From Escherichia coli (GTDB taxonomy: Bacteria > Pseudomonadota > Gammaproteobacteria > Enterobacterales > Enterobacteriaceae): DNA of 64,000 bases. Where the stretch lies: the NCBI RefSeq assembly GCF_030384885.1, contig NZ_CP128613.1. One strand, given 5' to 3'. Below the pieces are notes generated by a model. The model was not told the origin of the DNA and searched no databases. It was given only the letters and a program-made list of their open reading frames with translations. Of the stretch, positions 53,811 to 54,449 are shown one piece after another. Position 1 is the first letter of the stretch, and each line of letters starts with the position of its first letter. The translations under genes were made by a program, and so were the position numbers.

Positions 53811-54449
53811 ATGCCCGGGCGCTTTGAACTAAAACCAACCCTGGAGAAAGTCTGGCACGCGCCGGACAATTTTCGCTTCATGGACCCGCTACCGCCGATG
53901 CATCGTCGGGGGATCATTATTGCCGCTATTGTATTGGTGGTCGGATTTCTACTCCCGTCTGATGATACGCCAAACGCGCCGGTGGTGACGCGTGAAGCAC
54001 AGTTAGATATTCAGTCGCAATCACAACCGCCGACAGAAGAACAGCTGCGGGCGCAATTAGTCACACCACAAAATGATCCTGATCAGGTGGCTCCGGTCGC
54101 TCCAGAACCGATACAGGAAGGCCAACCGGAAGAGCAGCCGCAAACCTCGCAAGTGCAACCTTTCCAGCCAGATAGCGGAATTGACAATCAATGGCGCTCT
54201 TACCGTGTCGAACCCGGTAAAACGATGGCGCAGCTGTTCCGCGACCACGGACTGCCCGCTACCGATGTCTATGCAATGGCGCAGGTAGAAGGCGCGGGTA
54301 AGCCGCTGAGTAATTTGCAAAACGGGCAGATGGTGAAAATCCGCCAGAATGCCAGCGGCGTGGTGACGGGCTTAACCATTGATACGGGGAATAATCAACA
54401 GGTCCTGTTTACCCGCCAGCCGGATGGGAGTTTTATTCGTGCGCGGTAG
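53811..54449 (+). CDS. ytfB: Cell-division/OapA-like protein YtfB (LysM-like C-terminal domain)
   Basis: 212 aa from [23 protein letters not shown]...; TM anchor, Pro/Gln-rich linker. Confidence 0.85.

Follow-up and report, generated by a model that had tools for sequence, protein, structure and literature searches.

The window considered here is a stretch of Escherichia coli DNA of 64,000 nucleotides, in which two genes of opposite orientation run into each other by their 3′ ends. One is ytfB, on the plus strand; the other, on the minus strand, encodes a regulator of the TetR/AcrR family. The raw sequence, a mechanical list of open reading frames (ORFs) and the RefSeq annotation agree that 17 bp, at 54433..54449, are common to both coding sequences and are read on opposite strands. 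The coding elements of the junction are:

53811..54449, plus strand: ytfB coding sequence (CDS), 212 aa, annotated as 'cell division protein YtfB' by RefSeq/PGAP, an OapA-LysM protein.
54433..55080, minus strand: TetR/AcrR family regulator gene, 215 aa, annotated by RefSeq/PGAP, the full-length form of K-12 ytfA.
54433..54449, both strands: convergent coding overlap in phase (123:132), made of the last five codons and the stop of each gene.

On the plus strand, ytfB ends with TTT ATT CGT GCG CGG TAG, where TAG occupies 54447-54449. On the minus strand, the TetR gene ends with TCT ACC GCG CAC GAA TAA, where TAA is the complement of 54433-54435. The corresponding entries of the mechanical ORF list are 53775..54449 (plus strand) and 54433..55140 (minus strand), and each of these two genuine genes has its stop within the coding sequence of its partner. 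Over 53700-55300, the window is 100% identical to the chromosome of E. coli 2013C-4282 (NZ_CP027579.1), and the same 17-bp overlap is found in the RefSeq/PGAP annotation of that chromosome and in K-12. The overlap is already known in this sense, being annotated by RefSeq across thousands of E. coli genomes. A preliminary description of the window had reported a convergent 17-bp overlap of ytfB and ytfA at 54433-54449, and sequence, ORF list and RefSeq all bear it out. The gene names that it gave are also correct, with the precision that 'ytfA' designates here an intact regulator of 215 aa, of which K-12 ytfA is the pseudogene. It had further considered that re-annotation of one of the stop codons could make the overlap disappear; neither stop can be removed, both being fixed by the first in-frame stop.

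The two partners are of different nature. YtfB matches the Pfam families OapA_N and LysM_OapA, the latter reaching residue 223 of the 224-aa ORF, i.e. its penultimate residue. The 212-aa protein has been studied experimentally and carries at its very C-terminal end the LysM-like domain (PMC7174318). In the TetR regulator, both Pfam domains (TetR_N and TetR_C_29) are intact, TetR_C_29 stopping 14 residues short of the protein end, and full-length orthologues in other species are 81-97% identical. Divergently from the TetR gene lies an operon annotated as SDR/isomerase/hydratase/CoA-transferase/oxidoreductase/TRAP, and the region between the two contains a putative operator, a 22-bp palindrome at 55203..55224 that is conserved in all orthologous loci. 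Judged on these sequence features (helix-turn-helix and ligand domains, divergent operon and palindromic candidate operator), the gene is of the TetR/AcrR type that faces a divergent, putative target operon.

The integrity of the TetR gene varies strongly within the species. In K-12, ytfA is a pseudogene from which the N-terminal part and the upstream region have been deleted, the C-terminal 133 codons remaining in K-12-like genomes. The edge of this deletion lies near window position 54835, and in O157-type strains an IS609 insertion is found near 54540. Only 3,146 of 5,416 E. coli genomes cover at least 80% of 53700-55300. Overall, ~42% of complete E. coli genomes have a deletion or an interruption of the TetR gene and keep ytfB, which indicates that ytfB does not depend on the TetR gene.

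How unusual an overlap of 17 bp is can be judged from the reading frames themselves. In the three minus-strand frames that enter ytfB, the first stops are encountered after 78, 17 and 55 bp. No reading frame would give a shorter overlap than the actual one, which does not exceed the chance expectation. The 13 convergent pairs of the 64-kb window are separated by 53, 144, 57, 44, 0, 155, 37, 378, 62, 100, 124, 44 and -17 bp; a single pair overlaps (ytfB/TetR) and a single one abuts (nrdG and the RelB/DinJ antitoxin gene, 0 bp). Short convergent coding overlaps in prokaryotes were reportedly described by Fukuda et al. in 2003 and by Johnson and Chisholm in 2004. At the scale of a whole genome, 58 convergent CDS overlaps have been counted in one E. 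coli genome (Lillo & Krakauer 2007, PMC2174442). In the same study, phase (123:132) is the commonest among convergent overlaps of at least 5 nt (49%), mutation or loss of a stop codon is the best model for their origin, and any Rho-independent terminator of convergently overlapping genes must fall in the coding sequence of the partner (PMC2174442). The ytfB/TetR pair resembles this class in all respects considered, i.e. real opposite-strand genes that share their 3′ ends, the phase (123:132) and reading on to the next stop. Compared with the very common 4-bp stop/stop overlaps, 17 bp is longer, yet it is well inside the usual range and nothing essential differs. What distinguishes the pair from the general class is that its origin is directly visible, as allelic indel variants with spacings of -17, 0, +12 and +15 bp.

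These variants emerge from a comparison of the junction among genomes. The junction was found in 5,415 of 5,426 complete E. coli genomes. Over 54380-54530, identity to the window reaches 90% or more in 5,025 of the 5,415 (~93%), the other 390 lying in a band of 60-80% identity. In the three members of this divergent band that were inspected (VTB97448v, Z226-1 and PM22), the TGA of ytfB abuts the complement of the TetR stop and the overlap is 0 bp. Alignment of the window allele with the 79%-identical 0-bp E. coli allele, in which the TetR tail reads ..LLVNPARG, reveals that the two are distinguished by an 8-bp indel. The allele of E. coli EC05 has a 12-bp gap and a TetR tail ..LLVNPRM. The 17-bp overlap is present in E. 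albertii, E. whittamii, Escherichia sp. E1V33 and Klebsiella spallanzanii as well, and Entomohabitans teleogrylli has a 15-bp gap and a TetR tail ..LLVAK. A scan of species-representative genomes retrieved close TetR orthologues in few lineages only, each time tail-to-tail with ytfB; the next-best matches are proteins of Alphaproteobacteria with ~38% identity. The 8-bp indel and the series of -17, 0, +12 and +15 bp are what an origin by stop loss or frame shift, followed by extension, would leave behind.

The same comparison informs on which of the two genes is constrained at the junction. Tails of the TetR protein end in ..SSTAHE, ..STARG, ..STARE, ..GSLIGRE, ..NPARG, ..NPRM or ..VAK, with no conservation past ..LSWLLV. 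YtfB, in contrast, ends in FIRAR without variation across the Escherichia and Klebsiella loci examined, and in FIRAQ in Entomohabitans. The TTA whose complement serves as the TetR stop straddles two ytfB codons, TTT-ATT (Phe-Ile). Synonymous changes of ytfB seen in E. whittamii and Escherichia sp. E1V33 (ATT>ATC and CGT>CGC) replace HE by RG or RE in the TetR tail. Constraint is one-sided, with ytfB setting the shared sequence and the unconserved TetR tail following.

The case of K. spallanzanii merits a separate remark. Its TetR tail (..ITPGSLIGRE) has a different sequence and is one codon longer, and the overlap is still of 17 bp. This identity of length could hint at selection; the shared frame and the conserved Phe-Ile TTA predict the same value.

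A tight junction raises the question of where the two transcripts end. A pattern scan detected nothing resembling an intrinsic terminator in or around the junction, the nearest matches being ~200 bp or more away, and the three terminator-like sites of the region are within the expectation from shuffled sequences (1.8 +/- 1.3). An intrinsic or bidirectional terminator at the junction was rejected on this negative scan and because the hairpin 54466..54509 is without U-tract. In addition, no Rfam family matched 53400-55400 at E <= 1. An extended structure over the junction was also discarded, since neither the fold of 54400-54560 on the plus strand (z = -0.9) nor that of 54300-54480 on the minus strand (z = -1.1) is significant; the local hairpin 54466..54509 alone is conspicuous. 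The non-coding elements that relate to the 3′ ends lie in the partner genes:

54466..54509, plus strand: stem-loop of the ytfB 3′ untranslated region (3′ UTR), antisense within TetR codons, 18-60 nt past the ytfB stop.
54655, plus strand: estimated midpoint of the stretch where Rho ends ytfB-sense transcription, on the strand antisense to the TetR gene and 206 nt beyond the ytfB stop.
54283..54345, minus strand: possible end region of the TetR transcript inside ytfB, with a C-rich stretch and a weak hairpin.

For ytfB, the evidence comes from transcriptome maps of K-12. The primary 3′ terminus of ytfB in K-12 was mapped at 4428012, in a cluster spanning 4428011-4428020, for a CDS end at 4428079 (TRS study, PMC10687069 supplementary data). 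This terminus is 67 nt past the stop and corresponds to window position 54516 (cluster 54508-54517), the transfer being based on comparison of K-12-like sequence with the window, which have no indels in this stretch. The terminus is situated 7 nt after the hairpin 54466..54509. As computed by RNA folding, this hairpin has a free energy of -19.2 kcal/mol and a z-score of -3.17, with an equally stable fold in 1 of 200 shuffles; it is followed by CCAGUGC, i.e. not by a U-tract. It persists in every Escherichia allele of the main type, and the alleles found to have it are L001-L007, L009, L087 and L088; the 79%-identity allele keeps it by a register slip of one base, without strict compensatory pairs. 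E. coli EC05 lacks it in this form, and it was not recovered in the predicted fold of K. spallanzanii. A claim for a conserved RNA element was dropped on account of its absence from EC05 and from the K. spallanzanii fold and of the lack of covariation support; since the hairpin overlies conserved TetR codons, its conservation is inseparable from coding constraint. All truncated ytfA remnants examined retain at least 91 bp past the ytfB stop, hairpin included, which is a mild hint that the ytfB 3′ UTR matters and that the region is not wholly neutral.

Further downstream, a site of Rho-dependent termination was reported in K-12 at 4427873 on the minus strand of that genome, which is the strand of ytfB there, designated 'antisense ytfA', with a Rho score of 9.65 and p = 8.4e-39 (Adams et al. 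2021, PMC7815308 supplementary file 2). Reads upstream/downstream number 219/39 without bicyclomycin (BCM) and 185/318 with BCM (PMC7815308). Read-through past ytfB is BCM-sensitive in these K-12 data, and the window contains the homologous sequence. The centre of this region is a point estimate from statistics on windows of 800 nt and has a coarse resolution. The passage of Adams et al. 2021 (PMC7815308) that cites Dar & Sorek 2018 (PMC6061677) states that Rho-terminated RNAs are typically trimmed by 3′-5′ exonucleases. The ytfB end is like those of trimmed Rho-dependent terminators in having a BCM-sensitive region ~200 nt downstream and a sharp end after a hairpin devoid of U-tract; unlike typical Rho-trimmed ends, its hairpin falls within codons of a gene on the opposite strand, and trimming would here be deduced from these likenesses.

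For the TetR gene, the RNA transcribed past the stop contains 19 C and 8 G over 54283..54332 (minus strand), and a weak hairpin at 54325..54345 (-8.6 kcal/mol, z = -2.0) is followed by CGUUUUGC. This C-rich and G-poor stretch, together with the weak hairpin, makes it plausible that TetR transcripts end in a Rho-dependent manner inside ytfB. The preliminary description had concluded that the overlap leaves no room for terminators. This is right as far as a spacer between the genes is concerned, but it does not hold overall, since the 3′-end signals sit inside the partner gene (an end at +67 and Rho at ~+206 for ytfB).

A direct corollary is antisense transcription. Where the TetR gene is intact, the 17-bp overlap and the 67-nt 3′ extension together mean that the last 84 nt or more of the TetR coding sequence must have their complement in the ytfB mRNA; nascent ytfB transcripts extend ~220 nt into the TetR gene in antisense orientation. 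Such run-in stems from the tight spacing, because the alleles with gaps of 0, 12 and 15 bp face the same situation. The proposal, made in the preliminary description, of transcriptional interference or antisense pairing of the mRNA 3′ ends is therefore physically possible where the TetR gene is intact, but is not due to the 17 shared bases. Overlapping 3′ ends are in fact the rule, being found in 276 of 370 convergent operons of E. coli K-12 (75%), with a mean overlap of 286 nt (Conway et al. 2014, PMC4161252).

The question is whether this arrangement serves regulation. It could be that the pair forms a convergent excludon, in which complementary 3′ ends, by RNase III cutting or through polymerase collisions, render YtfB and the repressor of the adjacent catabolic island mutually antagonistic. 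Indeed, antisense to the TetR gene, the ytfB RNA extends beyond its stop by 67 to ~206 nt, no allele has a terminator or a spacer between the genes, and the tight junction is syntenic in three genera. Moreover, excludon-forming gene pairs have shorter intergenic distances (PMC12288877). The locus is like convergent excludons in that the ytfB transcript passes its stop into the antisense of the neighbour and the intergenic distance is short or absent. However, unlike published excludons, ytfB/ytfA is outside the K-12 excludome (list of ExcludonFinder 2025, PMC12288877) and its partner is a truncated pseudogene in K-12. The double-stranded RNA captured by p19 in K-12, where ytfA is truncated, is found at the 5′ end of ytfB, none being listed at its 3′ end. 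As K-12 ytfA is without its N-terminal part and upstream region, the excludome and p19 data are not decisive for strains with an intact TetR gene. Another argument against mutual antagonism is the loss or interruption of the TetR gene in ~42% of complete E. coli genomes with retention of ytfB; in addition, weak expression of both genes, assumed here, would make collisions rare. On balance, an excludon at this locus is unlikely.

A related view is that termination is programmed in both directions, the hairpin 54466..54509 positioning head-on collisions of RNA polymerases. Collisions at defined positions between convergent genes have been reported to need a stem-loop in the nascent RNA (Wang et al. 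2022, bioRxiv 10.1101/2022.10.23.513370), and the stem-loop found here, with its z = -3.2, its location 17 nt past the ytfB stop and a mapped 3′ end 7 nt beyond, would answer to that requirement. It is contradicted, however, by the formation of an identical 3′ end in K-12, where the opposing gene has neither its N-terminal part nor its upstream region, from which it follows that collision is unnecessary. Other arguments against it are the strong Rho dependence, the absence of a flanking A- or U-tract, the position of the hairpin within one gene and not between gene boundaries, and the behaviour of the hairpin in EC05 and K. spallanzanii described above. Bidirectional intrinsic terminators between convergent genes are said to have been described by Ju et al. 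in 2019. What the locus has in common with them is a stem-loop, close to where the two convergent genes meet, that goes with a defined 3′ end; what separates it from them is the lack of A-tract and U-tract, the non-intergenic location, the Rho dependence and the truncation of the opposing gene in K-12. Positioned collisions are thus very improbable. As to an annotation artefact, in which a stop or a gene would be miscalled and no true overlap exist, its one argument is the pseudogene status of ytfA in K-12 and in numerous further strains, which leaves one functional gene there. Both ORFs are nevertheless intact in the window, with complete Pfam domains, their stops are the first in-frame ones, and full-length TetR orthologues exist at 81-97% identity; this reading was rejected on the domain and ORF evidence and has next to no chance of being true.

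The explanation that is in all likelihood the right one is that of a short coding overlap, tail-to-tail, of incidental origin and familiar type, which can be understood without a dedicated role in regulation. The TetR gene and ytfB would already have stood stop-to-stop, no more than 15 bp apart, before Escherichia, K. spallanzanii and Entomohabitans acquired the pair or diverged at the locus. The unconserved C-terminal tail of TetR would then have its frame shifted by small indels. In most Escherichia, the TetR frame would be left without its own stop before ytfB, so that translation would continue to the first available stop, the TAA that is the complement of TTA in the Phe-Ile codons of ytfB, 17 bp into that gene. 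With no terminator between the genes, ytfB transcription would enter the TetR gene in antisense and be stopped by Rho ~200 nt downstream, the stable ytfB 3′ end being most likely what exonucleases leave after trimming as far as the hairpin. For TetR transcripts, a comparable mode of ending within ytfB is presumed. On these grounds, we infer that the overlap is without regulatory effect.

A more speculative possibility concerns the hairpin itself. Its sequence might be of dual use, encoding part of the C-terminal helix of TetR on one strand and stabilizing the 3′ end of ytfB RNA on the other, and Rho-limited read-through of ytfB might act as a cis-antisense brake on TetR. We consider this improbable. 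If true, the dual use would explain why the hairpin is retained in every truncated ytfA remnant examined, and the brake would couple the state of the cell envelope and of division to the de-repression of the TRAP/CoA-transferase catabolic island.

Taken alone, the overlap is of little importance, since it has the appearance of a side effect of indels in a protein tail that is under no constraint. A practical warning follows from the layout of the locus: deletion or tagging of the ytfB 3′ end alters the TetR gene, and deletions of the TetR gene can remove the hairpin of the ytfB 3′ UTR. Its value is modest, that of a clear worked example, in which alleles of -17, 0, +12 and +15 bp reveal how convergent overlaps arise and which partner is constrained, and in which the K-12 maps of 3′ ends and Rho-dependent termination illustrate that, where no intergenic space is left, transcription stops within the coding sequence of the neighbouring gene.

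Within the ytfB reading frame, 66 nt from its beginning, lies a very abundant RNA 3′ end (K-12 position 4428652, corresponding to window position 53876 on the + strand), represented by 32,337 and 96,021 Term-seq reads. It is directly preceded by a hairpin, GTCTGGCACGCGCCGGAC, followed by AATTTTCGC, and the same site was flagged by a pattern scan.

53850..53877, + strand: hairpin and 3′ end internal to ytfB (Term-seq 3′ end, pattern scan)

Its Rho score of 0.55 indicates that this end is not Rho-dependent, and its intrinsic-terminator score is 1.33. These features suggest that ytfB transcription ends early or is attenuated, or that a stable fragment is left from the 5′ part of its RNA; the site appears to be uncharacterised to date. 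The same part of the gene is covered by a cluster of RNase III double-stranded RNA captured by p19 and labelled ‘ytfB 5′’, which extends over approximately 53770..53880 in the fklB–ytfB divergent region. This cluster spans the ytfB start codon, with siRNA-like reads that include the complement of the ATG, which implies that antisense transcription crosses the 5′ end of the gene, its source probably being an fklB-directed transcript that starts inside ytfB. Antisense regulation of ytfB, if any, is better documented at the 5′ end than at the 3′ end. As to fklB itself (52973..53593), the newest PGAP annotations name identical or near-identical FklB proteins ‘BamJ family beta-barrel-assembly machinery protein’, a label that replaces FKBP-type peptidyl-prolyl isomerase. 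Elsewhere in the window, nrdG (+ strand) abuts a gene for a RelB/DinJ-family antitoxin (− strand) with a 0-bp spacer at 22300/22301; the two form another convergent pair of the window without space for an intergenic terminator.

The ytfB–TetR region (53811..55080) is deeply polymorphic within E. coli, with at least three haplotypes that differ by ∼15–21% in nucleotide sequence (compared loci L003, L086, L087 and L088); the divergence of E. albertii is only ∼3–4%. The FklB protein is identical between the main allele and the 0-bp-gap allele, and strain EC05, carrying the 12-bp gap, has a different FklB protein accession. From such sequence comparisons, the haplotypes are suggested to reflect imported or recombined segments. 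In the O157-type strain 08-3914 (locus L085), the TetR remnant is split by an IS609 element (IS200/IS605-type tnpA and TnpB/InsQ), inserted ∼90 bp past the ytfB stop codon, equivalent to window position ∼54540, just past the ytfB 3′ hairpin.

On its other side, the TetR gene faces an SDR gene across a 211-bp divergent region, within which a palindrome is located.

55203..55224: near-perfect palindrome of 22 bp, reading ATCAACCAACT|AGATGGTTGAT

This palindrome is kept with at most three mismatches at all orthologous loci, including those of K. spallanzanii, Entomohabitans and the divergent E. coli alleles, and is likely a TetR operator. A variable island, absent from K-12, has the TetR gene at its head and encodes the following products.

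55292..64000, + strand: SDR (‘3-ketoacyl-ACP reductase’), sugar-phosphate isomerase/epimerase-family protein, enoyl-CoA hydratase
55292..64000, + strand (same interval, continued): CoA-transferase, 693-aa FAD-dependent oxidoreductase, TRAP transporter

The TetR gene is markedly AT-rich (GC ∼39–43%), whereas GC contents reach ∼55% in ytfB and ∼52–58% in the island operon. Taken by their products, the island genes look like an uncharacterised operon for organic-acid catabolism.
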